Assembly: GCA_048884785.1 (NCBI GenBank)
Contig: JBHLQM010000010.1
Coordinates: 1-64,000, forward strand
Source of the DNA: Candidatus Thorarchaeota archaeon
GTDB lineage: Archaea; Asgardarchaeota; Thorarchaeia; Thorarchaeales; Thorarchaeaceae
Direction: 5' to 3'
DNA: 64,000 nucleotides
How positions within the stretch are numbered: the first letter of the stretch is position 1; every line of letters begins with the position of its first letter. The position numbers and the translations under genes are program-made. Under the pieces are notes generated by a model that was not told the DNA's origin, did no database searches, and saw nothing but the letters and a program-made list of their open reading frames with translations. This document shows positions 11,001-30,669 of this stretch, in pieces.

Positions 11001-12830
11001 TTCAGACATCCAGCTACTCCACATCAAAGAAGGCGTGATCTCCATTCCTTCAAATCCAACTGGTGTTTCTATTGACTGAACATAGGAGGCAATGCCTACT
11101 GGAAGCAATCCCTCGGATATTTCTAGAATTTCCATACTTAGCGCAACTGCACTTGTTTCTTCGGTTTTGCCAATAATATCACTTACTGCTGAATCAAAAC
11201 CAAAACCTCCAGAGGGAAGCTGATTCTGAAGAAGCCAATTCAGGCCATTGGTTCGATTCTCTGAACTAAGAGTTCCAAGCATCTCAAGAGTCAGTAATGC
11301 AGAGGCTGTTCCAAGCAATGGCTCCGAACCAGCCAATATTGAGTTATCAAAAGACCCATCCGCATTGGAGGTACGAGACAGAATCCAACTAGTTAGCTTT
11401 GCAGGATCATCATGTATTTCGCCAAGATAATCCAGTGCAAGGACATACTTCGCGGCATAGGAATTCATCGGAGCCGCTGACGATGGGTTAAACGAAACTC
11501 CGCCCCATAAGTCAGGATTGGATGTGTCACTTAGCGTTACAACACATTCTCGTAGCCAGTTTTCTAGATTGACAGTATTGATGCCTGACAGAGAGCCTGA
11601 TAGGCTTAAGGCTTCGATAGCATAGTACGTTGAGGTCAGGCTGTTTTCAAACCCCCCCTCTGGGGCTTGTCTTGAAGTGATATAGGAAACAACTTCCGTC
11701 TTGCTGAATGACGAGCTTAGCCCAAATGCCTCCATAATCCAAAGACCCTGAGCTGTACTCTTCAATGATATTACGCCTTGTGATGCAAGGTTCATGAATC
11801 CTGCCTCACTTCCGAGATCTTGATACAGGCTACCTAAGAGATCTAGAACTAGTGTGCTATGTGATGATGACCAAGTTAGCCATGCTGATACATTTAGAAT
11901 AGCTTTCATGGAGCGAATTGCATCATATGCAATATCTAGAGAAGGTTCGTGAAAATACTCGAAACCTCCAGTGAGGACACCTTGAGATTGTGCCTGAGAG
12001 ATTGCATCTAGGGTAGGAGTTTCACGCAGAGTTGTTGCATATGAAATTGTATTTACAAAAAGGGCTTTCCCTGAGGAAGTCCACATGTTTGGATCTTCAG
12101 GACCAAAGAGGAGCAAATCTAATGGCCATGAATCATAACGCAGTGGAGATATATCCAGAGATTGTGCACTTCCGATGAGATCTACGATTCGTGATTTTTC
12201 TGATTGAATCTTGGTAACTGGCAACGAAACAGACTCAGTTGTAAGAAGAGTCCCGTTTGAGATTAAATAGGGCATTGAAAGGAAGACCGCTCCGGTGAAC
12301 GCGGGTGTGGTGAAGAGATAATGTGACGCCGGAGCGGTCAAAAGGGGTGAATTCTCGCCTTTTAGAATAGGAAGTAACCAAGCTGATTGTCCAACCAAAA
12401 TAACGGGTTTATCGATTTGTACTAAGTAGGACAGAAATGTACTGGAGACTAGAGAACCATTTTCAGAGCCTAGACTACCATCGATTATCACAGCAATCGC
12501 ATCATCCAGCGGCGTAGGATTCAGCAAAAGCTCGGAAACTTCGTGCAGCTCCGCAACAATTCCTTCTGATTTGCAGAGTTGCAAAAGTGCCTCACCATGC
12601 GCCTCCACGCTCTGACCAGAATACTGAATGATGATGTACGTGCCTAACGAAACATGCACTCCAGAAGTGGCAGAAGTCGCAAAAGGAGCCGACATTGGGG
12701 ACATGGTGTTATCGAGTGGTATTGTGCCGGCACTTCCGATGCTATTAGTTGGTGAGACTGAGAATGACAAAAGAATTGTCATGAAGACCACCAATGCAAC
12801 AATATGAGCACTCCTCATTTGCATTTTCAC
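5019..12830 (-). CDS. Giant secreted, membrane-anchored protein: prenyltransferase/squalene-cyclase-like repeats followed by many Ig-like repeats
   Basis: Signal peptide; QAPEGGF, NADGSF and QLPSGGFG repeats in the first ~870 aa; repeated L.D..G.P+.G...T+.TG...G.Y.+...+.G units; C-terminal TM plus RRK. Confidence 0.8.
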   Translation of the reverse strand: MKMQMRSAHIVALVVFMTILLSFSVSPTNSIGSAGTIPLDNTMSPMSAPFATSATSGVHVSLGTYIIIQYSGQSVEAHGEALLQLCKSEGIVAELHEVSELLLNPTPLDDAIAVIIDGSLGSENGSLVSSTFLSYLVQIDKPVILVGQSAWLLPILKGENSPLLTAPASHYLFTTPAFTGAVFLSMPYLISNGTLLTTESVSLPVTKIQSEKSRIVDLIGSAQSLDISPLRYDSWPLDLLLFGPEDPNMWTSSGKALFVNTISYATTLRETPTLDAISQAQSQGVLTGGFEYFHEPSLDIAYDAIRSMKAILNVSAWLTWSSSHSTLVLDLLGSLYQDLGSEAGFMNLASQGVISLKSTAQGLWIMEAFGLSSSFSKTEVVSYITSRQAPEGGFENSLTSTYYAIEALSLSGSLSGINTVNLENWLRECVVTLSDTSNPDLWGGVSFNPSSAAPMNSYAAKYVLALDYLGEIHDDPAKLTSWILSRTSNADGSFDNSILAGSEPLLGTASALLTLEMLGTLSSENRTNGLNWLLQNQLPSGGFGFDSAVSDIIGKTEETSAVALSMEILEISEGLLPVGIASYVQSIETPVGFEGMEITPSLMWSSWMSEISRWSHGGSIVDNQAVELYLSLFSSWAQYPLWNNLSAYLAREYWIDQYNAKGVWSHYFGLSALSSTGSTISGDVIGDAVSYLAQCQQISGHYKPASLGGTAHMQSSVAAIEALYLIGSLDTIQYRSALETALLSEYSSGTWDSSGWTVLPFAADKSSIDWLSTRAALRLGIIDSMMASEIGATIASRIQYDDLWALSRDVAALALLNTSYPISLEIIDRQQILDALGPAPFSDGWLNSTPLWQPIYTAGVLEMLSILGLRPALFAPDGSIINASVNPTTEEGTLADIFISISSPLAMHTVYVWAFDEWTEFKNVANTDTISLEIPGGFSVLGPHNISLMVWDRSSSRSYDRAMLVIEGVLVGSLSLETLSVFQGDQINGTATWNLESGADAGTTQVIIRLGDLSQYQQWTYYVSSPFSFSIPTDDFSSGDHNITVYLNNSLCDILELQKPVSIQAAYLTYITATEALIGTVDNYVNISWSLHFQENGTLIPGQSVGLLVEDSSHQIIHTDTLISTSLGGEFQWIPSARGNYSFRLIFQRNGTLESSSFIGSIGVFENTEIHWDVAGLYSQYDTVKFSSSISTPNGEYLANLNLHVRVLSPSMSVLYDGFLVSNSTGQISLYILLSENGNYLFNATFYGSGYLIETSTSVIVISWSSSTLSSGGIPSDGLINTTWTIWAILQDSEGAPVIGVPVSLRIVYVPSTTIIDTTLTTNTTGGCSYQWKAASPGSYQILLEYAGSSSRQSVQDSMQSFLRVPVTLSIAGSSGYEVGAGGWSLIQASNHLGAGVSGLQIMFVVRDPQGSIVFSTSGNTAGGFLNISWIPTVRGQNSISLSSQQTPIYSSALCLCYIGVYEAVIVSIQLLDDAIAPSTSAISVAVVDTTANPIEGIDVYTLVLLDGLIIIDKYNTTPSNGIVLHSTNLNSPGILSIQVSIAAQGWILACDTQRLYSVLGRTTISIDFNGLPVDQGTTVGFQAFLVDWNSTPMNGATIQYFVKISNGTIILSGTRTTGYDGTCAFAYTFNNLGDFIILVIYQGTGLNNSTSSQVVQRVLTDPVLILTLSPTALLGSQVTIQIGILDGLDQWLSGRNLRIVISVDGNTVFESLLPSTTGLSTIHWTPNQRGIAIVELSYSGDSYVLAGLIQSSISIMEQVSGVLQIQPDVLDLGNTSVFIYQITSSTSPSGIEVLFEVLDVDLVSIWSQVAFTNTSGFAVSSYTPTDVIGVLTIRVAPSEDQLLIGGETQEEIVVKTHCTLAVELEPAPASLGGNLNISIECIDDLGGPIDGLQVRVYLNYLGQPVKLGTFTNWVALTTVNGIAKIEFTPQYSGSYQVIVESSGNIAVHSFYYEAYHIVHNPTSLEFVSIVNDLEVGENLKVVVLLSNYYGDPLIGRTVTLSLGTILGPVDLITNSTGHVEWTPAVDQEGLWQISAHFDGVGVYLPATITEDVDVRYGTQIFVSRITNETLVAGVTPLAVAVLLEDTGGTPLEGRTVRYQVYHDSHGLLYQDSFVQIGQTPEILEITLDRYGNYTILFSFAGTVHYHPSSTALSVFVMGTSAISIAGDVSIDRSLNQNITIFILDELDSILTPANIILDLLRNGVSIEIGSRLVISSDKLKLSILGLQVGEYELNATLPTTVGRLGTTRVFSFNITATTKIDIIESGLNGLIGQLHSIDLMIVDSLGTSIEDAHVYISLYDPSGKEVYGNILTTRTLVIAKTGSVSVSWIPSMVGNYSLFIEFEEDAFRGYSNLSLIVLTRYETNMDITLPEGSVYPHSLRLMVTLSGGLGKVSGASLVVLLYLNSLEANSYSLVTDIRGLAQIDIVPEFAGNYTVVVSYAGNERYAASTRTLYFIIEPSPVVDISIGKSLYVGVNGSIIVAIDIQGARYDWIGTLIIQIIDPYGEVSKTVQAGVSAVSSKEVYFTPNSEGLYRILAFVEQIPIIGMTNASKDIMISVLLTSLEMDVGTFPVVSGGAVLGVIGLILRRKLKGSIDSLSVEWDS

Positions 12831-15581: not shown

Positions 15582-16574
15582 TCACACCCACTGCTCAAGA
15601 GTTGTTTGCTCCTTTCCAAAATCCTTCCATAATTTCAAAATATGATTTGACTGCCTTTCTGCGTTCTCTTGGCCTATAATAGGTTCCAATAGGTGAATCA
15701 GTTTCGGAACCAAAGGAGGATTCAGATTGGTGATTACTCCATTTAATGAAATATAATTTGCTTCTTCAAACATAGATCTTGCATTGACATAGCCTTCAAT
15801 TTCAGATTTTGAATATCCCTTTGAGCGAAGTAGGCCAACTAAACCACCATATCTCTGAAGAAGTACCACTCCTTTACGAGGGCCGACACCTTTGACTCCA
15901 TCTCTATGAAAATCACACCCACAGATAATTGCCAAATCCCGAAGATAATCCAAGGGCAGATCAACTGATTCCTGGAGATCCTTGAGCGTACATCTCTCAA
16001 TCAATCCGTTACCAAACTGAATGGTTCGAGTAACATGAGGACTTCCGAAGAGAAGAGCATCTAAATCATTTGAAAGAACTGTACCTACTAGACTCTCTCG
16101 ACACATAACCGCCGCCATCATTTCTGCTTCAGATGGCGCAGTGACCTGCGGAACGCCGATTGCATTGCATAGATCCTTGAGATAGTTCACCGCGAAGTAC
16201 CATCGAAGCGCTCTACTCTCCACCAACTGTTCTGCAATTCTAGCGTCATTGATATTGTGGGACTCTGAGAATTGATGATACAATAGGGAAGCTGCTTGAA
16301 GTAAGGAAGGATTTGAGGGTCTCTTCAAATTCTCCGGAGGACCATCGAAAACGAATACTGGTAGTATCTTCATGGCAAGGCTGGATCGAATAGTACTAAA
16401 TGCAAGAGAGATTTGAGCGGTAGGAATTCTCTCAATACTCAGCTTTGCCTGATACTCGAATGCCTGTACTCTTCTTGTCAGGTAATTAGGCGCATCTATT
16501 GCCATGCTACGAGGCCGAAATTCATCATATGGTACCCATCGCCACGGTACGAAATCCCAATTTTTCACACCCAC
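15582..16574 (-). CDS. FEN1/XPG-family 5' structure-specific nuclease with C-terminal PIP box
   Basis: MGVK start (GTG 16574), IDA, PVFVFDG, APSEAE, SNDLDALLFG, CGCDF, H2TH GVKGVGPRKG, C-terminal QTTLEQWV. Confidence 0.9.
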   Translation of the reverse strand: MGVKNWDFVPWRWVPYDEFRPRSMAIDAPNYLTRRVQAFEYQAKLSIERIPTAQISLAFSTIRSSLAMKILPVFVFDGPPENLKRPSNPSLLQAASLLYHQFSESHNINDARIAEQLVESRALRWYFAVNYLKDLCNAIGVPQVTAPSEAEMMAAVMCRESLVGTVLSNDLDALLFGSPHVTRTIQFGNGLIERCTLKDLQESVDLPLDYLRDLAIICGCDFHRDGVKGVGPRKGVVLLQRYGGLVGLLRSKGYSKSEIEGYVNARSMFEEANYISLNGVITNLNPPLVPKLIHLLEPIIGQENAERQSNHILKLWKDFGKEQTTLEQWV

Positions 16575-16586
16575 TAGTGTCACAAC

Positions 16587-17318
16587 CTAGGCTGCCTTCA
16601 AAGAACGAATTCCCCTGTGTCCTAGCCGTACAATAACACCACCGGGATTAGGTATGATAGGTGTCCTCTCCACACATACCTTGACACCCTCATTAATTTC
16701 ACTAAGGGTACTTACACCTATTACCGTATCAACAGCATGTTCAATCACATTCCCCCCAATAGGGCGTGATTCACCTGTTAACCAATTACGAGCTGAATGG
16801 TCAGTCAGCATCATATGTATATTAGTATCAAGCACTACGCCTCTAACGACTTCCAGAGTCCTAAAGAGTTCTCTCTGGCGTTCCTTCGTTCCAGGGGGCC
16901 TACTCATGTTTAGCACGCTAGTTAGACTATCTAGCACAATCACTGCAATACTATCGATCCCTTGGCTTTGGACCACCAAATCTTCAACATCCGTTAGGTT
17001 GAACACAGATCCAATCTTGATTCTATGAAGGCTTTGATTCGAGTCGGTGCCGCACAGAACTCGTCCAAGCTGTGGGCTGAAATTTGATCCAGAATCGAGA
17101 TAGATAGCGTTTCTGTTTGCCATAGCGGCACCGATGACAACTGAATGTGCAATTGCAGTAAGCGGAAAGCGTTCTTCTCCATGAACGACGCTCATCTGAC
17201 CTGGAAGTATGATGCGTCCAATGATATTATCAAGAACTCTGGGTTTCAATTTAAATAAGGGAGCTGAGCTCACTTCGATTTCGTCTAGACTCTTTGATTC
17301 AATTGGCAGCCTGCTCAC
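16587..17318 (-). CDS. Rad51/RadB-like RecA-fold paralog with degenerate Walker A
   Basis: YLDSGSNFSP, VIVLDSLT, ERQRELF and RPIGGNVIEH motifs; the Walker A position reads HGEERFPLT (no GKT). Confidence 0.75.
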   Translation of the reverse strand: MSRLPIESKSLDEIEVSSAPLFKLKPRVLDNIIGRIILPGQMSVVHGEERFPLTAIAHSVVIGAAMANRNAIYLDSGSNFSPQLGRVLCGTDSNQSLHRIKIGSVFNLTDVEDLVVQSQGIDSIAVIVLDSLTSVLNMSRPPGTKERQRELFRTLEVVRGVVLDTNIHMMLTDHSARNWLTGESRPIGGNVIEHAVDTVIGVSTLSEINEGVKVCVERTPIIPNPGGVIVRLGHRGIRSLKAA

Positions 17319-18279
17319 CCCCTGCTTGAGACAGCATTAATGAAATAGTTCCAAGGTCACGTCCCAATATGATGCGTTCGAGGAATTCTGAGGGAATGTC
17401 TTTTGCCTCAATACCCGGAACACTTTCACGTCTAGTAACTGCACGTAATCCATCCGGATGAGGAAATATCATCAAACGCTCTGGTTGCTGTTTAAGCAGA
17501 ACTTCAACTGATTTCTCATTAACCGCCAAAACATAGTCAGACATTTCCAGACCATCATGAACATCGAGAAGAGGCATTAATAGGACAGCCTTCCTCAATA
17601 AAGGTGAAGTCTGTTCAATCTCACTTACACCTGCATCAGCCAAGACCTTTTTGACTTGCTGGCTCAATCCGATGCCTCCCTTCTCTCTTATTATTAATAC
17701 ATCGATGAATTCGAAGTGTGAGAGGATAGCTGGTAGTAGAGGCCTGTCGCGTAATACGGAAACTACTTTGCCAAAAGAACCTCTTGGCAACAGAAGGACA
17801 TCCAGCTTCTGACGTGTTATAAATGCCCACATAGCCAAGTCGTAATCTAGACCAGTTCGAAGCCCATTACTCCTGAAGGCAACAGCCAAATCCGCTGCAA
17901 GGTGCAAGCGTTCTTTGAGCTCAGTTGGATCTCTAACAATCATGCAGCCAAGAACCGAAAAGCCCGCACCCGCCAGTGAGATTAAGAGTCCGTAGGGAAG
18001 AAGTCCGACTAATAGTACGAAGAAAAGATACACCACCGTGCCCCATGCTGTCACATCTAAGAGAGTTTCAATGATAGGAGACTTTGGATTATAGAGTGAC
18101 ACAACTCGCTGCATTACCAGTGTGACTCCCACCACTGCAAGGAAAGGCATTACATTACCCAATCGCATGCTTACAACAACCCAGCTGACAGAGCCTAGGA
18201 TTTGTGATGCCATTATTATAGCCACACCGGCGATTATCCCATAGCTAAATAGACGAAAGAATGTCCCTCTGAACATCAT
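17299..18279 (-). CDS. Membrane protein (4 N-terminal TMs plus soluble domain)
   Basis: Hydrophobic first ~115 aa; overlaps both neighbours. Confidence 0.7.
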   Translation of the reverse strand: MMFRGTFFRLFSYGIIAGVAIIMASQILGSVSWVVVSMRLGNVMPFLAVVGVTLVMQRVVSLYNPKSPIIETLLDVTAWGTVVYLFFVLLVGLLPYGLLISLAGAGFSVLGCMIVRDPTELKERLHLAADLAVAFRSNGLRTGLDYDLAMWAFITRQKLDVLLLPRGSFGKVVSVLRDRPLLPAILSHFEFIDVLIIREKGGIGLSQQVKKVLADAGVSEIEQTSPLLRKAVLLMPLLDVHDGLEMSDYVLAVNEKSVEVLLKQQPERLMIFPHPDGLRAVTRRESVPGIEAKDIPSEFLERIILGRDLGTISLMLSQAGGEQAAN

Positions 18280-18950
18280 GAAGCCTCCATTGATACCCTT
18301 GATATACTGAATGATACCCCACCTGATGAAGAAAGGTGAAGATTGCCAATATGCTCACGGGGTGACCCATCTGCACTTGCAGTATAGATTTGGGAGACCT
18401 GACTTCCAGATCTTCTTTCCAGTATTAGATTAATATCTGCCCAGGAATCCAGCTTCTCATGATATACCGCCCGAACACCCATCTCTGATTCTCTGGTTTC
18501 GCTAATGAGCAAAATGCATAGATTCTTGGTCATACATAATCCGGCTAGAGTAGGCAGAGCTTCTTCAAACAATGACTGACCCCAAAGTATCTTTTCCTTG
18601 CGTGACATATCTAAAACTCTTGTAATCGAATCTATCACTACCATTCCGGTATTATTCCGGAGTCTACGGGCTGTGTCCAATATCGCGGATTTTGTTTCAG
18701 ATGCATTGGCTACTTGAGTGATAGTTAGATTAGATTCTATTCCTCCGTAGTACGCCATATTGTTTTTCAGATGTACAAGGAAACCAATCTTACCATCTGT
18801 AGAGAGCCAGTCAATGTGACGAGTCCTTGACCTGGAAGAAGCCAATGCAGCGGCAAATAGAGTCTTCCCTGACCCAGGACTTCCGGCAACGTGTATTATG
18901 CCGTTTGTATTGGCAAGTGTAGCAATATATTCATCAGTCAGATGTAGCAT
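18276..18950 (-). CDS. Rad51/RadB-like RecA-fold ATPase (core only)
   Basis: Walker A GSPGSGKT, Walker B VVIDSI, LLISE, ADINLILER. ORF extends to 19007; likely ATG 18950. Confidence 0.75.
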   Translation of the reverse strand: MLHLTDEYIATLANTNGIIHVAGSPGSGKTLFAAALASSRSRTRHIDWLSTDGKIGFLVHLKNNMAYYGGIESNLTITQVANASETKSAILDTARRLRNNTGMVVIDSITRVLDMSRKEKILWGQSLFEEALPTLAGLCMTKNLCILLISETRESEMGVRAVYHEKLDSWADINLILERRSGSQVSQIYTASADGSPREHIGNLHLSSSGGVSFSISRVSMEAS

Positions 18951-20583
18951 CCTCCTCAACTTGCCTGTGCTTTGAGAGAGCTTCAGTGCTGGAGTGTGAT
19001 TCAGCAATGCTGGCTAGTACATCCAACGCAGTAGGTTCCACATCGCCCTTCCTGGAATCACCTCGAACGATCTCAGATAGCTCATCCAATTGATTGGCAA
19101 CTGAGATAGTGTCATCCTCAACGCCATCGTACTCTTCAGTTGGGCGGGTTTTCGCCTCTATCTCTGGGATTTCATCTAACACATGTTCTGCGTCAGCAGT
19201 CGAGATTTCTTGGACAAGCCAATCATCTTCCTCTGGATCGTTCTGGATTTCGCCGGCGGGATGCTCACTTATCTCTCTATCAAGAAATTTGAGGTTCTCC
19301 TTCATTGCTCTGGAATTCATCAGATCATCTATCCGATCCTTTACAGAAGGTCTTAGAATTCCTGAATTGTATAGGGTGTCTGTAAGCATAGTTGAGTGCT
19401 TCAGAATTTCATCTTCAGTTAATGGCGATAATATGTGATTGCTAAAAGCGACGTAAGAGATGGCTAGTTCAGATTCGTCCAATTCAGTTCCAAGTGAGTT
19501 GAAGAGTCCTGCAAATTTGGATAGACCATCATCACCCAAGGATTCCACTCTACTTGTAGAATGTCGAACGCATTCATCTAAAACAAGACACGCGGCACTC
19601 ACTGCGCTGTCATAATCGCCTACAGAAATTGAACCGGCAACAGATGCCATGAGAGGCGAAACTACAAAACTCAGATCCTGCTGTGTGCGTAGTTTTTCCT
19701 TGTTTATCTCAATGCTTTGGTTAATTCTATGCCCATCCCCGACTTTGTTAACCTTGATGGTTTCTGTTTGAATAATATCCAGGAATTCATCTAGCCTCCT
19801 CCGAGAACTAAAGAGCAACCATGCTCCAGCCGCAATTCCAAGTATGCTAGCTCCAATTGGCAATACCATGGAACCCTCACCTTGAAACAAAACACCAAGA
19901 ATAGAAACCGCTCCAATAATGGATAGCATGGTGGCAAGAATCCCAAACCACGCCTGTTTCATGCTCTCATCAAGAATATCCCATTTTTCACGTATGACAC
20001 GATTCTGCATCTCCGAGAGAGAAGCCCTCATATCACTGCGCCGTGCCAAGAGAAAATCATCAGCATTTAAAATCCGGCTTGATTCGGTTAGCCAAGTCAA
20101 ATCAACACCGGGGCGAGTTTCACTCACAATGACATAGACAGTTTTGGTTAGATGAATAAGAGAGCCCTTATGATTAGGTCCTGCTCGCAGCATTTGCAGA
20201 CTGATTCGTCCTTTGCTTGTGAGTTTAGTGACTTCTTTGACACTGTCATCCAAATGAACGTCTTTGAGAGCAGACACAATGGTGCGATTGAGAGTTTCTA
20301 GGACGGCTGCTTGCATAGCAATAGTTGCCTTGCCAAATGATGCTCGTCTCAGATCAAGTACATATGCCAAATCCAAATGTACTCCTCTTCTATCGGGGAT
20401 TCCCTCCGTTAGAACACCTAAGACAATGCCATTAGGATACGTTGAAATCCTATGACCAGTTGCACTTAGAGCCCTGACTATGTCGTAGTCTTCTGTACCG
20501 CCAATAGTGGCGGTGCCTTCTCTTTCCAAAGTGTCTTCGTTTTTCTCAACCGTGGAGGTTTCATCAGTTATTACCATCATCAT
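18934..20583 (-). CDS. Membrane protein with two central TM helices and acidic C-terminal tail
   Basis: Two TM segments (WFGILATML...; MVLPIGASIL...), helical C-terminal half; start overlaps the helicase stop. Confidence 0.7.
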   Translation of the reverse strand: MMMVITDETSTVEKNEDTLEREGTATIGGTEDYDIVRALSATGHRISTYPNGIVLGVLTEGIPDRRGVHLDLAYVLDLRRASFGKATIAMQAAVLETLNRTIVSALKDVHLDDSVKEVTKLTSKGRISLQMLRAGPNHKGSLIHLTKTVYVIVSETRPGVDLTWLTESSRILNADDFLLARRSDMRASLSEMQNRVIREKWDILDESMKQAWFGILATMLSIIGAVSILGVLFQGEGSMVLPIGASILGIAAGAWLLFSSRRRLDEFLDIIQTETIKVNKVGDGHRINQSIEINKEKLRTQQDLSFVVSPLMASVAGSISVGDYDSAVSAACLVLDECVRHSTSRVESLGDDGLSKFAGLFNSLGTELDESELAISYVAFSNHILSPLTEDEILKHSTMLTDTLYNSGILRPSVKDRIDDLMNSRAMKENLKFLDREISEHPAGEIQNDPEEDDWLVQEISTADAEHVLDEIPEIEAKTRPTEEYDGVEDDTISVANQLDELSEIVRGDSRKGDVEPTALDVLASIAESHSSTEALSKHRQVEEDATSD

Positions 20584-22759
20584 CACCTGCAAAACGTGTA
20601 TCTAATTCCTCCCAGAGGGATTGCGCCTGGCCAGCCACAAAAGACAGGTTTCCCTCTCTGGCAATTGCAGCAATTGCACTCAACAGCCAACGGGCCTTCT
20701 CCAATAGAGATAGCAGATCTCCTATGGGGAGTCCGAGCTGCTCCGCCATATCCTGTGTATGTATTCGTGTTGTGGCTGCCATTGCAACCATAAAGTCGAA
20801 TTGCTCATCTAAGGCCAAGTTGCCTTCTATCGACACAAGATGCCTTAGCAGAGAGAGTAATGTAGTTGTATCATCAACAAAAGGAATCATTGCAAGTAGC
20901 TCCCTTGCTGTTCGAATGCGAAGGTATAGCCTGCTTACTAATCGCCCCAACCGGGTGACACGAACCTTGCCACCATCTGCCCCTTCAATGAATGCAAGTC
21001 GCCTAAGAACCCCTGACGGACTTGACTCGCTGAGTGACAGTGGTATGACATGATCTGCGTAGATCTTATGCTCAGTAATTGCGGCTATCCCAAGGATGAC
21101 TAAGTGCGAACACAAGACCCCATTTTCATCAAGAGGTCTTCCGCAGGAGCACATTGGACCCTCAATAGCACCGCTTCTCTGGCTCCTCGAGGAAAAGCGG
21201 CAAGTAGCATTATCCCCACCCTTTTGGGTCACAATGCCTCCTATTACAGAATCGTGTGCCTCTCTGATACGAACTGTTCCAAGGACGCCTGCTCTAGCGG
21301 CTCTTAGTGAATCTGATAATGAATGCTTCTCAAGTACTGAAATTGCATCTATGTCCCCGAGATGAACGAGTCTCATCGGTGATCCTGAATTTCTAACTGC
21401 CTGGTGAATAAGAAAGGTATCAGCCAGAAATCCATCTTCAATATCCTGAAGACTTGCTTCACCAAGTAAATCTAGAGCAACTAGGAGCTGTTCCTGCACA
21501 GATTCGGAATCCGAAAGAGCACTCCTTAGGATTTCGTACCTCGGTTCAAGAATCTCCCGACCTGTTGACTCATCATGGTGTGTATAGAAGCATCTTTGTT
21601 TTATCTCGATTGCCTGCCCTTTATTATCTGCTACAATGATTCCAAATCCCTTTGCATCAAGTCCAGGTCGACCTGCTCGCCCCAACATTTGATGTATTTG
21701 ATTTGATGATAGAAGTTCCTTATAATCTACAGGAGATCTAGGGTTCGCAATGATAACACTTCGAGCTGGGAGGTTCATCCCTGATGAAAGCGTAGTTGTT
21801 GCACATATCACTCTAATTTGCCCCTGTCTGAAAAGCCCTTCAATCAACCGTCTGGCAGATATTCCAAGACCTGCATGGTGGTATGCAATTCCTTCGTGAA
21901 GTACCTCTCTCAAATCCTTGGGGAGCGCAACCCCCCAATGTTCCACTGATGATAACTCAGATTGAAGGAATGCCCTCTCATTTGAAGTCAGTTGCTTTCC
22001 GACATGCGGAGCCAGCCTTTTTGCTTCAGCTTCTGCCTCTCTTCTAGTTCTCTGAAATACAATGACTTGTCCATTTTTCTGCACTGTAGTCATGGTATAG
22101 AGCTGCACTGCCTCATCGCGATGAACCTTGGGAACAACTGAGCAGATCAGAGGTATCGGTCTCTCAGAAGATTCTATTAGTTCGCAACCTAGCCATTCAC
22201 TTAGCTGTTCAGGCATTCCGATTGTAGCTGAAAGAGCAACAATCTGCAAATTTTCAACAATCTTGCGAAGACGTATAATGACTGATTCAAGTCGCGCACC
22301 CCTGACGGGTTCTGAGATGGACTGCACCTCATCTATTACAATGGTTCCAATCTCTTCAATCCATTTTACTCGGTGACGAAGAAGAGAGTCTGTCCTTTCA
22401 TAGGTAGTAACGAGTATATCATATTCAGAGAGGTCTTCACTTTCCGAAAAACAGTCACCAGTACTCAGTCCTACTCGAATATTCTTTGGCTCATACCTGC
22501 TCTTTAGGACTTCATAGATTTGACTGGCTAAGGCACGTAATGGGACAATGTATAGCCCTCTCTTTCCTGCAGAGATTGACCTTAGAAGGGCCATCTCTCC
22601 GATGAGTGTTTTTCCGGAACCTGTTGGGCTGGAGATAAGAATACTCTGCCCCTCCAGGAGACCTTTGTCCACAGCGTCTCTTTGAATACCTCTGGGTTGC
22701 AATCCAATGTGATCAAGAATCTTATGCACCCGAGCAGAAATATCCATATAGCTTGTCAT
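20564..22759 (-). CDS. Ski2-like/Hel308-type SF2 helicase with inserted SWIM zinc finger
   Basis: SPTGSGKT, VPLRALA, DEVQ, SAT, HHAGL, GMNLPA, QMLGRAGR; CSC-x10-CSH SWIM motif precedes TRLGRLVSRLYL. Confidence 0.88.
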   Translation of the reverse strand: MTSYMDISARVHKILDHIGLQPRGIQRDAVDKGLLEGQSILISSPTGSGKTLIGEMALLRSISAGKRGLYIVPLRALASQIYEVLKSRYEPKNIRVGLSTGDCFSESEDLSEYDILVTTYERTDSLLRHRVKWIEEIGTIVIDEVQSISEPVRGARLESVIIRLRKIVENLQIVALSATIGMPEQLSEWLGCELIESSERPIPLICSVVPKVHRDEAVQLYTMTTVQKNGQVIVFQRTRREAEAEAKRLAPHVGKQLTSNERAFLQSELSSVEHWGVALPKDLREVLHEGIAYHHAGLGISARRLIEGLFRQGQIRVICATTTLSSGMNLPARSVIIANPRSPVDYKELLSSNQIHQMLGRAGRPGLDAKGFGIIVADNKGQAIEIKQRCFYTHHDESTGREILEPRYEILRSALSDSESVQEQLLVALDLLGEASLQDIEDGFLADTFLIHQAVRNSGSPMRLVHLGDIDAISVLEKHSLSDSLRAARAGVLGTVRIREAHDSVIGGIVTQKGGDNATCRFSSRSQRSGAIEGPMCSCGRPLDENGVLCSHLVILGIAAITEHKIYADHVIPLSLSESSPSGVLRRLAFIEGADGGKVRVTRLGRLVSRLYLRIRTARELLAMIPFVDDTTTLLSLLRHLVSIEGNLALDEQFDFMVAMAATTRIHTQDMAEQLGLPIGDLLSLLEKARWLLSAIAAIAREGNLSFVAGQAQSLWEELDTRFAGDDDGNN

Positions 22760-25071
22760 TTTCCTGCACTCACCTCTCGATCTTTCTGTCTGAGAGCCAT
22801 AGTACCTTTCATGGTTAGGCGGTAATTCTTGTATGAAACACCACTATGTTGTTCGTGACCTTCAAGTATGAAACTAGCGTCCTTCAGACGGATTAGAATA
22901 CCTTCAACATCACCTTCTCCGCCACTAGCCGATATGAATCGTCTGACAGCTTCCTCTGTCAATGGCTCATACCTCTCTAGAAGTCTGAGAACTCTTAGGT
23001 TCAAATCAGAGGCTTCAGTACCATCATTGGTTGAAGGTATAGCCTGTTCCTTTTGAGAAGAAATACGAGAAATTCGCGACCTGCTCTCTTCAGGAGATAT
23101 TGGTCTTAGCTCTGGTACATCCGCCAATCGGAATGGTTGAGCAGTTTCCAGTTCATTATGAACAAGCAATGCAACGCCATCCTCCATTGTCCGAAGAAAA
23201 GAGGATTCTCGGGCCGACCATCGCGCTTTGCTATGTAATCCAGTACCTATTACGCTCAGAGCAAGTCGTGATGATACTACGGCGATATCTTTCTCATCCC
23301 TCAGTCTGAATGATATGCAGGAGCTCAATAGATTCTTGACTCCTGATGATAGCATATGAGGCTGGTCGATGCTTATAATAACGGAACTCACTTTGGAGAG
23401 ATTGCGAATAAGAGAATCAGTCCAAAGTGCCCTGCGTGAATACTCTGTATTTGATGTTCTAAGATTATCAGGATCATCAATGATAATTACTAAATCCCTG
23501 TCAGGTTTGCGTCCGGCTAGTTTCATGAGCATAAGATCAAAGGCAAAGAAGTCAAGCGGTGCAGAACCCAAGGACATAGAAACCACGCAAATTGGTATCG
23601 ACCCCAATTTTTCGACTGAAACGGTTTGGGTTCCATAGAAAGCTCTTGCTCCAGATCCTTGGTGTAATCTCCTTAGAGCTTCAATACCAAGTAGTGATGC
23701 CTTGCTCGTGGAATTTAATTGAACAGCTGAGTCCGTCGCCTGGAGATCGGCATCATTCTCAATCCTCACATCTGCAACTGTTCGGTTTCCCAACGCAACG
23801 GCTCTTCCTAGGGCGAGTTCAAAGTCGGCTGCACTCGTGAGCGATGCGCCACTCAGACTTTCCAACGCTCTCATTAGCTGTGGAACAAATTCAGTTCGCG
23901 GGACATTATCGGAGTCGACAGGATTCAGAACCAGGTCCTTGCCCAAAGTCATTCCTATTGCGCCATCATGAAGACTTGCTAATTGAAGTGCATCATGGTG
24001 TGAGCTGAGTACAAGAACGCGCTTTCCTGAACTAAGTAGTCGTGCTGAAAGAAGCGATAGCAAATCCAGTCGATTTTGCCAACTTCCCCCGCAAACAAGA
24101 ACACCATCAGATATATCTTGAAACGATAGTCCGGTAATTGGGCCTTCTTGGAGGGTGTCAGGATTCAAGACCTTTCCGAGAGGTAGGTCACTTTCTCTGG
24201 TTCGGATGTTTATTACGAATTGCCCAGGGACATTAGTTCCAACCTCTGACGACAATTCAGACCTTAATTGAACTAGCCATTCGGATAGCTCAACTCCGGT
24301 AGCGAAGTACAATGGCAAACCGTGTCCGCCTTTCATGCTAGCGAGCTTCTCATGCAAACGAGCTGCGTCGATGCGCTTCCATCCTTTTGCAGGAATCGCT
24401 CCACGGACTGCAGATTCATGAAAGCGAACATCATTGGCATCTCTTACTAATCCAATAATAGAAACATTAACGCCCCATAGACCGGAGCGATACTCCATAT
24501 AGGTATGCAACTCGTCTCCGGAAAGTCCTTTGAGATATGTTTCAATCGAGGATGCAAGGTTGCGATTCTCTAAAATCCTTCCCGGATTCATTGATTCCAT
24601 CGATACTGTGAGAGTGAAACCATCAGAAGTTGGCAGAGCTCTGACAAGAGAAGCAATAGTACCTTGAAGCTTTGCTCCTGCGCTCCTCAATTCTAGCCCT
24701 GTAGCAGAATACGGAATTTCACCAAGTCGTCGCAAATGACTATTGTCTCCAACGAGCGAAGGAAAGATGTAGAGCTGTTCCTTCCATGCACTCTGTGGAT
24801 TGACATATTCGTGATTTGATAGATATCTTGGAATAAGCCAAAGCATTACAGACAGGAGAATGGTCAAAGCAATTACAGCGATAGGAAATGAAAGGACTGC
24901 AATGAAAGAGAGAATAACTATGGCAATAGACGATGTCCACGAATCTCGAATCTCTCTACTTGTCCATCGAACTTCACTGCTACTCGCTGGCTTTAAAGTG
25001 GATTCCTTCATCTCAGAGAGTGGATCTTGAGGAGGCTGGGAGCCCATTACAAACCCTTTACCCTTAGCCAA
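22756..25071 (-). CDS. Membrane-anchored HerA/FtsK/VirB4-like protein with degenerate ATPase motifs and C-terminal winged helix
   Basis: N-terminal TMs; VLVCGGSWQNR (Walker A site), GKRVLVL, LGKDLVLNP, LVIIIDDPDNL (Walker B site), DQPHMLS...SFRL, LRTMEDGVALL, YRLTMKG. ORF extends to 25158; likely start TTG 25071 or ATG 25047. Confidence 0.65.
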   Translation of the reverse strand: MAKGKGFVMGSQPPQDPLSEMKESTLKPASSSEVRWTSREIRDSWTSSIAIVILSFIAVLSFPIAVIALTILLSVMLWLIPRYLSNHEYVNPQSAWKEQLYIFPSLVGDNSHLRRLGEIPYSATGLELRSAGAKLQGTIASLVRALPTSDGFTLTVSMESMNPGRILENRNLASSIETYLKGLSGDELHTYMEYRSGLWGVNVSIIGLVRDANDVRFHESAVRGAIPAKGWKRIDAARLHEKLASMKGGHGLPLYFATGVELSEWLVQLRSELSSEVGTNVPGQFVINIRTRESDLPLGKVLNPDTLQEGPITGLSFQDISDGVLVCGGSWQNRLDLLSLLSARLLSSGKRVLVLSSHHDALQLASLHDGAIGMTLGKDLVLNPVDSDNVPRTEFVPQLMRALESLSGASLTSAADFELALGRAVALGNRTVADVRIENDADLQATDSAVQLNSTSKASLLGIEALRRLHQGSGARAFYGTQTVSVEKLGSIPICVVSMSLGSAPLDFFAFDLMLMKLAGRKPDRDLVIIIDDPDNLRTSNTEYSRRALWTDSLIRNLSKVSSVIISIDQPHMLSSGVKNLLSSCISFRLRDEKDIAVVSSRLALSVIGTGLHSKARWSARESSFLRTMEDGVALLVHNELETAQPFRLADVPELRPISPEESRSRISRISSQKEQAIPSTNDGTEASDLNLRVLRLLERYEPLTEEAVRRFISASGGEGDVEGILIRLKDASFILEGHEQHSGVSYKNYRLTMKGTMALRQKDREVSAGK

Positions 25072-25351
25072 TGGAACCACCTTCTGCAATCTGATAATGC
25101 TGGGAGAGAGCCTGAAGCATTCTTCGGAATCTTTCAGAGTACTCTTCCTTGCCTTCAAAGAGGAGCATTCGACCTATGATAAGCACTTCAGGGAGATCTC
25201 CTGGAGGTGGATTTCCATGAGCCCATAGTTTTGGATACTCGGTCAATCGAGTCCAAACATATCCATGACCAATCTCGAGGTTGTTCATTAGTTCCTCTAT
25301 CTTCAGATTCCCAGGAATTGCGAGCATGGAAGTGCCACTAAGCCTTTGCAT
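25064..25351 (-). CDS. Hypothetical protein (95 aa), operon member
   Basis: Coupled to both neighbours with RBS-like GAGGT/GGTGG. Confidence 0.6.
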   Translation of the reverse strand: MQRLSGTSMLAIPGNLKIEELMNNLEIGHGYVWTRLTEYPKLWAHGNPPPGDLPEVLIIGRMLLFEGKEEYSERFRRMLQALSQHYQIAEGGSIG

Positions 25352-25937
25352 CGACCTCTATACCTCCTCTTCGAATAAGCTGAATATCAGGAACATCGGC
25401 TGTAGAAATGGGAGTGTGGGGATAGGCGGCCCGCATTGCACTCTCAAGGACGAACGCATCCTCAAGCACTTTGTCAGCCAAATCCTCAACTCTGTGAATC
25501 CCATTTGGTAGTCGAAGACTACGCCTTGATACAATGAATCCAACTCTAGTGACTGAGTTGCCCAAAGGTCTGCATAGCACAAATTCAAGCCTCCCTCCTG
25601 GTTCATTATCGTACCTGGTTGCCATTGCTGAGAACACCTTTTTCGCGGAGTGGCTCAGGTCGATTCCCAGGGGAACACTTCGAATAAGACGCAATGAACA
25701 AACCTCAACATTCCATCCTCTGATAATTCCCAAAACGCCCCGATTCCCATCCCAAAGAAGATTTGGAGTTTTGTCAATTCTTCTTACACTGAATAGCAGC
25801 AATAGAAGAGAAAGCATGCCGGCAATCGCAATTATGAGGTGATTCATATTCTGCTGAATTGATAGGCTCATGCCCCACGCAGCAGCGATAGCAGCCACCA
25901 AAATCCAATGCACGGATGAGGACTCCTTGGAAATCAT
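25338..25937 (-). CDS. Membrane protein (2 N-terminal TMs plus alpha/beta domain)
   Basis: Two hydrophobic helices; ATGA overlap with the upstream gene. Confidence 0.7.
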   Translation of the reverse strand: MISKESSSVHWILVAAIAAAWGMSLSIQQNMNHLIIAIAGMLSLLLLLFSVRRIDKTPNLLWDGNRGVLGIIRGWNVEVCSLRLIRSVPLGIDLSHSAKKVFSAMATRYDNEPGGRLEFVLCRPLGNSVTRVGFIVSRRSLRLPNGIHRVEDLADKVLEDAFVLESAMRAAYPHTPISTADVPDIQLIRRGGIEVDAKA

Positions 25938-26128
25938 ACGACCTCCCTCTCAAGAATACTTAGACATGGAGAGATATCTTCAACAGGCTCCGCATCGATG
26001 GCACACCAAACCGTAAATAGCATCCAAGAAATTGCTGAAACACCCAAAGCTGTTGCAGAAACTAGTAAACCAATTCCAACCGCGAGCCATGCTAGCATTG
26101 CAGCGAGAAATAGAGCTACAGTTTTCAT
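25934..26128 (-). CDS. Small 2-TM hydrophobic protein (64 aa)
   Basis: First 45 aa almost entirely hydrophobic; coupled by ATGA overlap. Confidence 0.6.
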   Translation of the reverse strand: MKTVALFLAAMLAWLAVGIGLLVSATALGVSAISWMLFTVWCAIDAEPVEDISPCLSILEREVV

Positions 26129-26135
26129 ATTCAGT

Positions 26136-28100
26136 TTAACCCACTCTCCTTAAATCAAGAAACATTGTGATTGCCTTCTTCATTTCCTCAACACTATGAT
26201 ATGGCCAAAGATCAGAAACGATGTCATCTCCAAAGATTGAGATATGTCGTTCAAATCTATGGTCAAGAAGTACGACCACTCCCCAGTCTTCTGGAGACCT
26301 TCGTAGGCGCCCAACAAGTTGAACCACTTTGCGGACAGAAGGAATAACTGAGGAATAATAATATCCAGAGCCTTCTCCAAAACGTCGCTCATACCAGTCC
26401 TGCAATGCCCTTTGATAGCTGGTAGGCGGACTGAATGGTATCCCCACTCCGATAATCAGATCTACAAGCGACTGACCATCAATGACCAAGTCTACTCCCT
26501 CACTGAATTTTCCGCCATAGACGAGGAATACAGCCTTTGGACCTTGGTGCACTTGGTCCTGCAAATCTTCTATCCTTGCATCTCGATTCTCGACGATTCT
26601 ATCTCTATATCCACAATCAATATTGTAGCTTAGAACCTGGTCCATCACATCATAACTTGGAAAAGCCACGAGAGCCGATTTCTCTGCAGGCATCGTGACA
26701 AGAGCAGCTTCAATGCGCTTGCTCAGGCCGCGCCATAGCTCAGGTCCTCTTACTGAATACTTCGTAGAAACTTCACGATCCAAAAGAACAAGTCGTGAGT
26801 TCCTTGGATATGGACTTCCCAAATCTTCTGTCAATGAGCCTCTGATACCCATAAGACTCGCATAGAGATTTGTAGGCCTGAACGTGCCAGACATAAGCAA
26901 AGCAGCTCTTGCACTGCGGAGGATTGGGGCAATCAGGCCTGCAGCATTTAAGGGGCGTATTCGGAGAATGCCATCGACCAAACGAACTTCACTTGCCCAA
27001 GAGGGATTGAGCTCAGCTGTGACATGCCAATCATCACTATCAGATGCTCGGAGTCCGGCGAATAGAAAATCAACCAATCTATCCAAAGGTGTTTCCGTTG
27101 GAACAGATTCATCACCATCAAGGATTCGTGTCTGGTCCATAAGAACGTGAATGAGTTCAGGATCTACAAACCTAGGAAGGATTTGCCATCGGTCAATCTC
27201 GAGTTCACCCTTTTTCCTTCCAATTTTGTCAAGCGAAACCATCAAGGATTCCCAGAGGAAATCTATCACTTCGGAAATCCAGGATACCCCTGTTTCCTTC
27301 TTGACAGATGCCTTATTGTCCCTGAGCCACTGCAAATCCTCCCCGCTGAGACTAGCCGCCTCGGAAGAAAGAACATGTTCTGGAAGATTGTGCGCCTCAT
27401 CAACCAGTAGATCTGCATCCAAGAGACTATAACTCAAACTGGACAGAAGGGCGTTTCGAACACGTTCCTTGAAGAAGTAGGAATAAGGTCCAATTATGAC
27501 TCTGCTTTGTCTTGCTGACCATCTGAGAACTTCGTAGGGGCAAACACCTGACTCCTCAGCACTATGCTCAGCTGTTTCTCGAGCAACAACACCAGAAGAA
27601 AGCAATTCATTAACTAGTGATCTGGCGGGCTCACGTATCACTGGTGTCCCTTCATCTCCTTGACGTCTGTAGAATTGCCAATAGTGAGTGCACCGCCCAG
27701 TTCTGATCATCATGGCGCAACCGCGCATGAAACCCATTGCTGAATCAGTATCCATCTCGTGACGTATAGGGCAGATGTGCTTTCTAGAAACCATACTTGT
27801 AGTCGTGATTTGGTTTCCATGCCCAAGCGCATTTCTACGAAGTAGTTCAAGTTCTTCTTCAAAAACTCTTGACTGTGAGTGAGTTCTGGTAAGAATAAAC
27901 AGTCTCGAAGTAGAATCATCCGCTCTTACCGCCAAATATCCTGCTAGAGAGGCAATTGTTTTGCCGACACCGCATTCAGCAGATAGCATACCCACTATTC
28001 CCCGCGCATATGTTTCAGCGGCTATTGTTACGGCCCTATCCTGTTGTGGACGTGGCGTGTAGGGGAACCATGCAAGTGGATTCGCTATGCTTTCTCCCAA
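26136..28100 (-). CDS. XPD/Rad3/DinG-family 4Fe-4S SF2 DNA helicase
   Basis: FPYTPRPQQ Q-motif, AECGVGKT, TRTHSQ, four FeS Cys (HICP, GC, RC, CPYE), DEAHNL, SGT, GGKFSEGVD, QLVGRLRR. Confidence 0.92.
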   Translation of the reverse strand: MGESIANPLAWFPYTPRPQQDRAVTIAAETYARGIVGMLSAECGVGKTIASLAGYLAVRADDSTSRLFILTRTHSQSRVFEEELELLRRNALGHGNQITTTSMVSRKHICPIRHEMDTDSAMGFMRGCAMMIRTGRCTHYWQFYRRQGDEGTPVIREPARSLVNELLSSGVVARETAEHSAEESGVCPYEVLRWSARQSRVIIGPYSYFFKERVRNALLSSLSYSLLDADLLVDEAHNLPEHVLSSEAASLSGEDLQWLRDNKASVKKETGVSWISEVIDFLWESLMVSLDKIGRKKGELEIDRWQILPRFVDPELIHVLMDQTRILDGDESVPTETPLDRLVDFLFAGLRASDSDDWHVTAELNPSWASEVRLVDGILRIRPLNAAGLIAPILRSARAALLMSGTFRPTNLYASLMGIRGSLTEDLGSPYPRNSRLVLLDREVSTKYSVRGPELWRGLSKRIEAALVTMPAEKSALVAFPSYDVMDQVLSYNIDCGYRDRIVENRDARIEDLQDQVHQGPKAVFLVYGGKFSEGVDLVIDGQSLVDLIIGVGIPFSPPTSYQRALQDWYERRFGEGSGYYYSSVIPSVRKVVQLVGRLRRSPEDWGVVVLLDHRFERHISIFGDDIVSDLWPYHSVEEMKKAITMFLDLRRVG

Positions 28101-28702
28101 TTCGTTTCCTCCACCTGCAACATCGACTCTGCTGTGTGTATTCTAAATCTGATTGAGAAGTACCGATACATTAGGTCATGGAATCTCTGCACATTAGCTG
28201 AGGAGTCAAAGCCCTTTGTGTTCGAAGCCATTCTCTCGACAATCTCGGGACTGAATCCACGTTTCATAGCTATTGACCAAAAAGTCGCTTCGACCTCTTT
28301 TGCGGTACTCAACACAAAATCGCAGATGTTCTCCACCAATTCTCGTAGAAATCTGACAGCCTCTCGCGGCAACGCTGGTATCTGGGAGGCATAAGTCGAT
28401 GTAGGGACATAGAGTTGAAGACCTTCATCGCTATCCAAGTATACCTTACTTGGAACACCTCGCGTACCTCTCATGGTCTCCAGGAAAGATAGTATCCTTG
28501 GGAGCTGTGGGAGTATCGGTTTCTCCAAATCCCTCCAGTCTATTGACATGAGTACGAATAGTTCAGGATCTGGTTCTATTTCTGCCATCCTTATTACAGT
28601 GATTCGAGTTGGGGTATGACGCATGATTAGATTCACGAGTGCAATTGAATTCCGATTTGGCACGCCATGAGGAATTTGCATATGCGAGGCACTTGTTGTC
28701 AT
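28085..28702 (-). CDS. Hypothetical protein, operon member
   Basis: 205-aa ORF overlapping both neighbours. Confidence 0.7.
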   Translation of the reverse strand: MTTSASHMQIPHGVPNRNSIALVNLIMRHTPTRITVIRMAEIEPDPELFVLMSIDWRDLEKPILPQLPRILSFLETMRGTRGVPSKVYLDSDEGLQLYVPTSTYASQIPALPREAVRFLRELVENICDFVLSTAKEVEATFWSIAMKRGFSPEIVERMASNTKGFDSSANVQRFHDLMYRYFSIRFRIHTAESMLQVEETNWEKA

Positions 28703-29145
28703 CCCAATGAACCTCCCTCAATAATGAATAGATTACCAGAATGCTCAACCAACGCACCTTCACGTTTCAGAACATCCACAAAATGGCGGGCTCGTTCTAA
28801 GTCAATTCCAGCTTCTGAACATTCGCGAAGTACTTCCGTGTAGGAGGCAGGCTGCCCCCTATTGATTTCAATTAGTGCCTCAATTATATTCAACACGCGC
28901 TTCTTTAAACCCAAGCCACGTGAAGCCCCTGTCTTTCTTTCATCCAATCTGGAAGTCAATACGAGATCCGTGAGTATGTCCTTTGCTTCATCAATAGTAG
29001 CAGCGTACAGAGTACCTTTTTCATGGAGAATTAGTCCATTACATAGGCTGCATCGGGCGTCATCCTCTTCGTTGTTTACTGCAGCAAAGCCAGAGTTTCT
29101 GCATCTTCTGCATTGATAGATTCTGAACATACCCCGGGCTTTCAA
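28699..29145 (-). CDS. Zn-ribbon plus C-terminal winged-helix protein (DUF1922/DUF5817-like)
   Basis: CRRC...CSLC; the C-terminus VLNIIEAL...AGIDLERARHFVDVLKREG resembles the MCM C-terminal winged helix. Confidence 0.6.
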   Translation of the reverse strand: MKARGMFRIYQCRRCRNSGFAAVNNEEDDARCSLCNGLILHEKGTLYAATIDEAKDILTDLVLTSRLDERKTGASRGLGLKKRVLNIIEALIEINRGQPASYTEVLRECSEAGIDLERARHFVDVLKREGALVEHSGNLFIIEGGSLG

Positions 29146-30218: not shown

Positions 30219-30669
30219 CTTTGAGAACCTCCTTCACCTGAGTTTCCACGGGGCCCCTAAGGGGAACCAACCGCATGAATCTGGATATCTCAGAAGGAGG
30301 AATCACAATCATTCCGCCAAGGAACACTGTCCGTACTCCAGCCAATTGCAGCTGTACAGCTGATGCATCTGGCGATGAGATTGGAAACAGTATACCCTGT
30401 TCAGTCACTCTCCCTGTGATGCTGATATACCCGCCAAGAGAGTCAAGAACAGAACCGTCTTCTGGAGTCTGTCCAGGCGCAATTGGTGTGATATCCAACA
30501 GCATGTCCGCAGTGTCCAAGACATCTGATAGGAACGGAGCCCAGAGATATTCTGGCTCCCAATACCTAGGCAGCCCAAGTCCAGCAATTGCTCCTGCCAA
30601 CCATGTGGTATCAGTAATGTCAGACACAACAGGGAGTATCCGTCCATTCAGGTCAATAGTGTAACTCAT
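30211..30669 (-). CDS. Hypothetical protein, operon member
   Basis: 152 aa; ATGA overlap upstream, carries the RBS for the radA-like gene. Confidence 0.7.
   Translation of the reverse strand: MSYTIDLNGRILPVVSDITDTTWLAGAIAGLGLPRYWEPEYLWAPFLSDVLDTADMLLDITPIAPGQTPEDGSVLDSLGGYISITGRVTEQGILFPISSPDASAVQLQLAGVRTVFLGGMIVIPPSEISRFMRLVPLRGPVETQVKEVLKVD

Follow-up and report, generated by a model that had tools for sequence, protein, structure and literature searches.

A predicted SWIM zinc finger inserted in the winged helix of a Hel308-like helicase, encoded in a Thorarchaeota operon of divergent repair paralogues

Hel308/HELQ helicases are presented in PMC13623763 as conserved controllers of recombination, and domain 5 of the canonical Hel308 as both a brake on the ATPase/helicase activity and an annealing element. 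For the Ski2-like enzymes Mtr4 and Ski2, an arch inserted into the winged helix is described (PMC10946056). Here we report on a helicase gene of Candidatus Thorarchaeota archaeon, located on the minus strand of a stretch of 64,000 nucleotides (assembly GCA_048884785.1, contig JBHLQM010000010.1, positions 1 to 64,000), which is called the window throughout and to which the coordinates in Table 1 refer. Its product resembles Hel308, lacks domain 5 and carries, inside the winged helix, a module with the predicted zinc ligands of a SWIM finger. According to the reading that we favour, with a probability of roughly 55%, the protein would be an active Hel308-type DNA translocase, belonging to an Asgard-only clade of SWIM-bearing helicases, and would act as the motor of an accessory recombination or repair module, with the SWIM domain as its docking or regulatory surface.

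Domain structure of the helicase and of its insert

By sequence comparison, the product is a Hel308/Hjm-like helicase (Ski2-like, superfamily 2), as already proposed in a preliminary description of the locus, and its motor motifs are intact. Among NCBIfam models, the highest scores came from two Hel308 equivalogs, PRK02362 (363 bits, against a cut-off of 887) and Hel308 (NF040935; 311 bits, against 1200), both covering residues 5-395 only, and Hel308/Hjm chains from the PDB match residues 15-393 with E values of 1e-68 to 1e-76. The Walker A box, motif II, which reads DEVQ as first noticed (residues 143-146), and motif VI are all invariant among 26 Thor-type homologues, K50, T51, D143, E144 and Q146 included.

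A structure model built on the same number of homologues reached a predicted local distance difference test (pLDDT) score of 86.5. When compared by VIA-align, its residues 4-729 superpose on Hel308 (2p6r_A, residues 1-645), Hjm (2zj5, 5-654) and 2va8_B (4-658) with Z scores of 32-34 and about 570-590 aligned residues; the helicase therefore possesses the winged-helix domain 3 and the ratchet domain 4, which in Hel308 form the ring around single-stranded DNA, and it reaches no further than the end of domain 4. No helix-hairpin-helix (HhH) match was found in the protein by Pfam, and all but one of 18 canonical Hel308 rows extend 26-52 residues beyond its C-terminus. As the preliminary description had suspected, the helicase has no HhH domain 5 and ends with the ratchet domain 4. 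Its identification as the ordinary Hel308 of this genome was considered and rejected, since the scores lie under the equivalog cut-offs, domain 5 is absent and the gene sits in an operon of paralogues.

When aligned with the 18 canonical representatives, residues 466-578 have no counterpart in over 80% of these rows. The N-terminal part of the winged-helix domain contains, in the model, helices at 418-432, 437-447 and 449-456, and the additional module sits after the second helix of the domain and before the third, at the position where Mtr4 and Ski2 carry their arch. As modelled, it is built of two helices, a four-stranded sheet, a zinc knuckle and two more helices. The strands (494-501, 505-512, 517-526 and 532-537) precede the CxC..CxH motif, and correspond to the beta-rich segment that had been noticed ahead of it; the motif itself, CSC-x10-CSH, had been placed at about 21100-21155 and lies exactly at 21104-21151. 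The insertion had also been located before TRLGRLVSRLYL. This sequence does follow C-terminally of the SWIM signature, at residues 602-613, and represents the conserved transition from wing to ratchet, T602 and G605 being nearly invariant across the wide family (24 C-terminal halves); the module, however, lies within the winged helix, and not merely in front of that sequence.

The four predicted metal ligands, C537, C539, C550 and H552, are invariant in the 26 Thor-type homologues, in the 24 C-terminal halves, whose mean identity is about 20%, and in a 35-row alignment of the inserts: no exception was found in about 58 homologues, down to about 20% identity. Because of this invariance, CSC-x10-CSH is not a chance occurrence. 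The Pfam SWIM model (PF04434) matches 15 of the 35 aligned inserts, with a best E value of 1.5e-7; at one further locus (L033) the SWIM score is 15.9 bits, against a cut-off of 19.6. The insert modelled in isolation (residues 466-590) gave a pLDDT of 89, and in an exhaustive structural comparison its top match was ZSWIM8, residues 114-214 (Z 6.5, a moderate value; root-mean-square deviation 3.8; 89 residues aligned), the next match being at Z 3.9. The best PDB hit of the insert profile is again the SWIM region of ZSWIM8, although a weak one (E 1.5). On conservation and modelling together, the Cys/His cluster is accepted as a SWIM finger with predicted zinc ligands, as the preliminary description had it. 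Its term, a fusion of HELQ and SWIM, is somewhat inexact, the module being inserted inside a domain.

Literature searches brought up no account of a SWIM module inserted into helicases of Hel308 type, and no zinc finger in Hel308 is mentioned in the available sections of two surveys, one on archaeal Ski2-like helicases (PMC10946056) and one on Hel308/HELQ (PMC13623763).

Distribution and phylogeny of SWIM-bearing helicases

When 1.84 billion representatives were searched exhaustively with HMMER, about 25 clusters aligned over the full length, those named being from Thor-, Loki/Prometh-, Hermod-, Baldr- and Hodarchaeota. The architecture was also surveyed, as the preliminary description had advised: of 400 Asgard genomes searched with a profile built from the insert, 271 gave a match (among the high-quality ones 70 of 90; by genus 59 of 85), and many genomes contain two or three SWIM-bearing copies. 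By family (Asgard families are numbered f, individual loci L), the insert is near-universal in f1 (84 of 85) and f22 (129 of 135), and rare or absent in f8, f10, f11 and f13.

A tree of 58 rows, obtained by a quick LG+G4 search after removal of the insert columns, split 40 SWIM-bearing rows from 18 canonical Hel308 rows with a support of 100 in the Shimodaira-Hasegawa-like approximate likelihood ratio test. Short forms of about 710-745 residues, including the window helicase, fall into one sub-clade of 22 rows (support 91). Pfam HHH_5 was found in long forms outside this sub-clade (f4, f31, f32 and Baldr) and in none of the short ones. We regard it as firm that SWIM-bearing helicases are a new and Asgard-specific architectural variant of Hel308, that they include a sub-clade without domain 5, and that this sub-clade was inherited together with recombination paralogues. 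Some members of the short clade (L036:8635-11295, plus strand, and P0115) have about 150 extra C-terminal residues, in which no family was recognised. The last residue of motif II varies across the 40 SWIM-bearing rows, being H in 25, Q in 12 (Thor/f2 lineage only) and another residue in 3; DEVQ was thus rejected as a hallmark of the family.

The genome encodes a second SWIM-bearing paralogue of 756 residues (L003:733-3003, minus strand; about 38600-40870 of contig C9), 25% identical to the window helicase and of the same build, with a CTC..CKH motif. Its Walker A (MTYDYEEAYD) and motif II (IDRLD) are destroyed, and it is therefore a motor-dead paralogue; no operon genes are found near it. The pair appears to be conserved, as most Thorarchaeaceae genomes give two matches to the insert profile.

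Two other helicases of the genome have no SWIM module. A divergent Ski2/Hel308-like protein of 830 residues is encoded at 50555-53047 of the window (minus strand; L005:205-2697), with SRTGKTF and DDVH motifs; it barely matches PRK02362 (44 bits). A Hel308-like protein of 897 residues, encoded on contig C9 (L004:394-3087, minus strand), has an N-terminal PadR-like winged helix, DELS as motif II and a C-terminal stretch resembling an HhH tail.

The operon and its conservation

The helicase gene belongs to a run of 15 genes on the minus strand, closely spaced or overlapping, at 15582-31391 (Table 1). The sequence ATGA contains both its start codon and the stop codon of the gene upstream; at the 3' end, 14-29 nt are shared with the following gene, g11. 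Canonical RadA (323 bits, contig C5; 180 bits for the operon copy) and canonical FEN1 (440 bits, contig C30; 114 bits for the operon copy) are encoded elsewhere in the genome, and the operon therefore holds second, divergent repair paralogues. Two further genes of the Rad51/RadB family were found at C51:22631-23221 and C49:18948-19547 (61 and 48 bits), so that the genome encodes at least six RecA-fold recombinase relatives: the canonical RadA, three operon copies and these two.

Among the other members, g04 combines an N-terminal CxxC..CxxC zinc ribbon with a C-terminal winged helix, and g09 is marked by a membrane segment at its N-terminus and by a degenerate Walker A. When 16 rows of g09 were made into a profile, it weakly matched HerA ATPases (E 0.0075-0.2), including those of defence systems (8j4u, 0.0075; 8xau, 0.061); Pfam gave no match in 16 members of the g09 family. 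The g11 family is represented in f1 and f2. Beyond the downstream end of the operon region, close to it, lies a giant frame of 2603 codons (window 5019-12830, minus strand); the product at the syntenic locus L008 has 2610 residues, with Big/MG2/filamin-like repeats.

Table 1. Window coordinates of the operon genes and of the helicase features, listed in the direction of transcription.
Feature	Position	Strand	Remarks
g01 (241 aa), g02 (152 aa)	25064-31391	-	within upstream half of operon
Second RadA (RadA2)	29142-30218	-	
g04, Zn-ribbon and winged-helix protein	28699-29145	-	148 aa
g05 (205 aa)	25064-31391	-	within upstream half of operon
XPD-like helicase	26136-28100	-	
g07 (199 aa), g08 (95 aa)	25064-31391	-	within upstream half of operon
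g09, membrane-anchored HerA-like protein	22756-25158	-	800 aa; immediately upstream of helicase
Helicase gene (P0001)	20564-22759	-	single 731-codon frame; Hel308-like product with SWIM insert, 731 aa
RecA1 domain, residues ~1-200	22160-22759	-	Pfam DEAD, E 2.6e-32
Walker A SPTGSGKT	22607-22630	-	in RecA1
Motif II DEVQ, residues 143-146	22322-22333	-	in RecA1
RecA2 domain, residues ~201-395	21575-22159	-	Pfam Helicase_C; invariant columns 356-365
Motif VI QMLGRAGRPG	21662-21691	-	in RecA2
Winged-helix domain 3, N-terminal part, residues ~396-465	21365-21574	-	gap-free alignment with canonical Hel308
Inserted module, residues 466-578	21026-21364	-	~113 residues; no canonical Hel308 counterpart
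Predicted SWIM signature C537-S-C539-x10-C550-S-H552	21104-21151	-	CSC-x10-CSH, residues 537-552
Winged-helix domain, C-terminal part, residues ~579-612	20924-21025	-	third helix, wing, start of TRLGRLVSRLYL
Ratchet domain 4, residues ~613-725	20585-20923	-	weak Pfam Helicase_dom4_arc match at 668-706
g11, central membrane helices, acidic tail	18934-20592	-	up to 552 aa; overlaps helicase gene, immediately downstream
g12, RadB-like paralogue A	18276-19007	-	core-only; Walker A GSGKT intact; likely start 18950
g13, membrane protein between both paralogues	17299-18279	-	326 aa; no known family matched
g14, RadB-like paralogue B	16587-17318	-	Walker A lost, conserved HGxERxPLT in place; Pfam Rad51 E 1.7e-7
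g15, second divergent FEN1-like nuclease	15582-16583	-	114-115 bits, cut-off 352

The gene order was examined by tblastn in neighbourhoods of 20 kb. Of 20 Thorarchaeaceae genomes, 18-19 have nearly all 15 genes with their order unchanged, and the helicase is always followed by g11, RadB-like A, g13, RadB-like B and the FEN-like nuclease. The co-occurrence with two Rad51/RadB-like paralogues, to which the preliminary description had drawn attention, thus holds in this family. Given this co-occurrence and the assignment of the Cys/His cluster to SWIM, that description is therefore not contradicted on either point.

In other families, neighbours were searched with hidden Markov models (HMMs) of the operon proteins. 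Short helicases of f2, f14, f16, f18 and f19 have operon-related genes within 10 kb, as does a domain-5-bearing helicase of f32. These neighbours include genes for RadA2-like, RadB-like A, FEN-like, HerA-like and/or XPD-like proteins, in rearranged order. With f1, recombination genes thus adjoin SWIM-bearing helicases in at least seven Asgard families. The helicase has RadB-like A as a neighbour in f1, f14, f16, f18 and f19 (within 10 kb in the four families other than f1), and RadB-like B was detected in Thorarchaeaceae only. Long forms of Loki type, and those of Baldr and Hod, have no RadA, RadB or FEN neighbours; long domain-5 forms with SWIM, not adjoining paralogues, include those at L010, L011 and the f22 loci. 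A small g04-like gene was matched by HMM, weakly but repeatedly, 0.5-3 kb from SWIM helicases in f2, f4, f14, f16 and most f22 loci, which makes g04 the most persistent neighbour of the helicase across Asgard families.

Possible roles of the insert and comparison with known systems

In the reading that we favour, the helicase would be the motor of an accessory, probably membrane-associated, module for homologous recombination or repair, whose other members would be RadA2, the two RadB-like paralogues, the FEN-like nuclease, the XPD-like helicase and the HerA-like membrane protein. With the domain 5 brake gone, control in trans is suggested, and the motor might be governed by operon partners. 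As for the insert, we infer that it offers a docking or regulatory surface, more likely for a protein than for DNA. Its position corresponds to that of the arch, a docking site for adaptors in Mtr4/Ski2; its net charge ranges from -8 to +10 across homologues, being about zero or negative in most Thor-type copies, and no conserved basic column or patch was found when the homologues were compared, which makes protein docking or regulation somewhat more likely than DNA binding.

Several points weigh against this reading. The window's own insert has no Pfam SWIM match even at E 10, and its sole Pfam result is a sub-threshold metallothionein match; nor did Foldseek, run with the isolated insert against the PDB, give anything at E 0.001 or better. 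In the 35-row alignment, invariance across the clade is limited to the ligands and a single Leu, so that the insert shows no obvious common surface for one conserved partner. In addition, we infer the function of the operon from paralogy alone, and g01, g02, g05, g07, g08, g11 and g13 have no recognisable family. The support of 91 for the short-form sub-clade lies below the star level of the tool, in a quick search, and is suggestive only. Lastly, the Q in place of H at the end of motif II, limited to Thor/f2, could alter the handling of nucleotide or substrate.

The logic of the Shu complex, invoked in the preliminary description, would make the helicase a mediator: its SWIM module would dock the RadB-like A/B pair in the way Shu2/SWS1 docks Rad51 paralogues, and all would form one complex on RadA2 filaments. 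This is unlikely. The two paralogues follow the helicase in almost all Thorarchaeaceae genomes examined and RadB-like A accompanies short helicases in f14, f16, f18 and f19; one paralogue has an intact and the other a lost Walker A, much as in the paralogue heterodimers of eukaryotes; Shu2 touches the Rad51-like Shu1 through its SWIM domain within the Shu complex (PMC5727457), and HELQ binds BCDX2 (PMC13623763). The co-occurrence stands, but no specific likeness to Shu2/SWS1 was detected: none of its chains turned up in the profile search (E up to 10) or among the top 50 of a wide structural search. A complex prediction that paired the helicase's C-terminal half with both RadB-like paralogues (20-row alignments, run without controls) scored 0.00, which counts neither for nor against binding. 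Surface residues conserved clade-wide are missing, RadB-like B is confined to Thorarchaeaceae, and the insert is equally invariant in long forms that do not adjoin paralogues, from which it follows that it predates the operon or is independent of it. The SWIM module of the whole Asgard clade might even be a docking site for RadB-like paralogue pairs, and a single-chain counterpart, possibly a precursor, of the arrangements of HELQ and SWS1/Shu2 with RAD51 paralogues; we consider this broader proposal improbable. If it were true, the Thorarchaeota operon would be a self-contained second recombination machine working on that principle.

Also improbable is a role of the module as a sensor of DNA structure, which would bind a branch point or a junction of single- and double-stranded DNA beside the winged helix and, in short forms, replace the sensing of single-stranded DNA by domain 5. 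The original prediction for SWIM domains was that they would bind either DNA or proteins (PMC5727457), and the insert sits inside the winged helix, the substrate-recognition domain of Hel308 (PMC13623763). The charge data given above speak against such binding, and long forms retain both SWIM and domain 5, so that the former is not a replacement of the latter. It is still less probable that the zinc module is a structural decoration, merely stabilising the winged helix, and that adjacency in the operon reflects co-regulation without physical partnership. Such a role would agree with the near absence of invariant residues besides the ligands, and with the presence of the module in active, dead, long and short paralogues alike. 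A domain of 113 residues that folds independently, kept in every paralogue and in over two thirds of the Asgard genomes surveyed, suggests instead a function beyond stability; moreover, the arch at the equivalent site of Mtr4/Ski2 is a functional platform for the docking of adaptors. The assignment of the helicase to defence or mobile elements, as a Hachiman-like HamB or as part of another anti-virus system composed of helicase, HerA-like ATPase and nuclease, is highly improbable. PADLOC HamB models match its RecA domains with 116-139 bits and the candidate model PDC-M23B with 144 bits, and g09 weakly resembles HerA of Sir2-HerA-type systems. These scores are far below the 363 bits of Hel308 and cover the generic motor only; no HamA or other defence partner was found, the other operon proteins matching PADLOC only as generic DinG and mad8, and the operon is near-universal and vertically consistent in f1, with 84 of 85 genomes matching and a tree in agreement with taxonomy, whereas defence islands are usually patchy.

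These proteins form a concrete set, open to experiment, on which the origin of the cooperation between helicases and Rad51 paralogues, before eukaryotes arose, can be studied; they also offer a route to asking what SWIM domains bind. Compared with Hel308/Hjm (2p6r, 2va8, 2zj2/2zj5) and with the helicase domains of HELQ/POLQ, the window helicase is alike in its RecA1-RecA2 motor, in motifs I, II and VI and in domains 3 and 4; it differs from Hel308/Hjm in the predicted SWIM finger inserted in domain 3, in the absence of the HhH domain 5, in having DEVQ instead of DExH, and in belonging to a separate clade. The insert shares with SWIM proteins (PF04434), such as ZSWIM8 (PDB 9rwz), the CxC-x10-CxH motif with beta strands before and a helix after it, but is embedded inside a helicase domain, rather than terminal or free-standing, has two extra helices on each side, and stays under Pfam detection.

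The yeast Shu complex (PMC5727457) and human SWS1-SWSAP1 resemble the locus in that a SWIM protein is genetically associated with core-only Rad51 paralogues, one of them catalytically degenerate; at this locus the SWIM module belongs to a helicase, the association is one of gene order only, and SWIM is also present in relatives without the paralogues. With the arch/KOW of Mtr4/Ski2 the common element is an accessory domain inserted into the winged helix of a Ski2-like helicase (PMC10946056). The inserted domain has in those enzymes the form of a stalk plus KOW, and in the Asgard protein a predicted SWIM fold; Mtr4 and Ski2 act on RNA, as helicases in the exosome pathway, and the gene described here is found in a context of DNA recombination.

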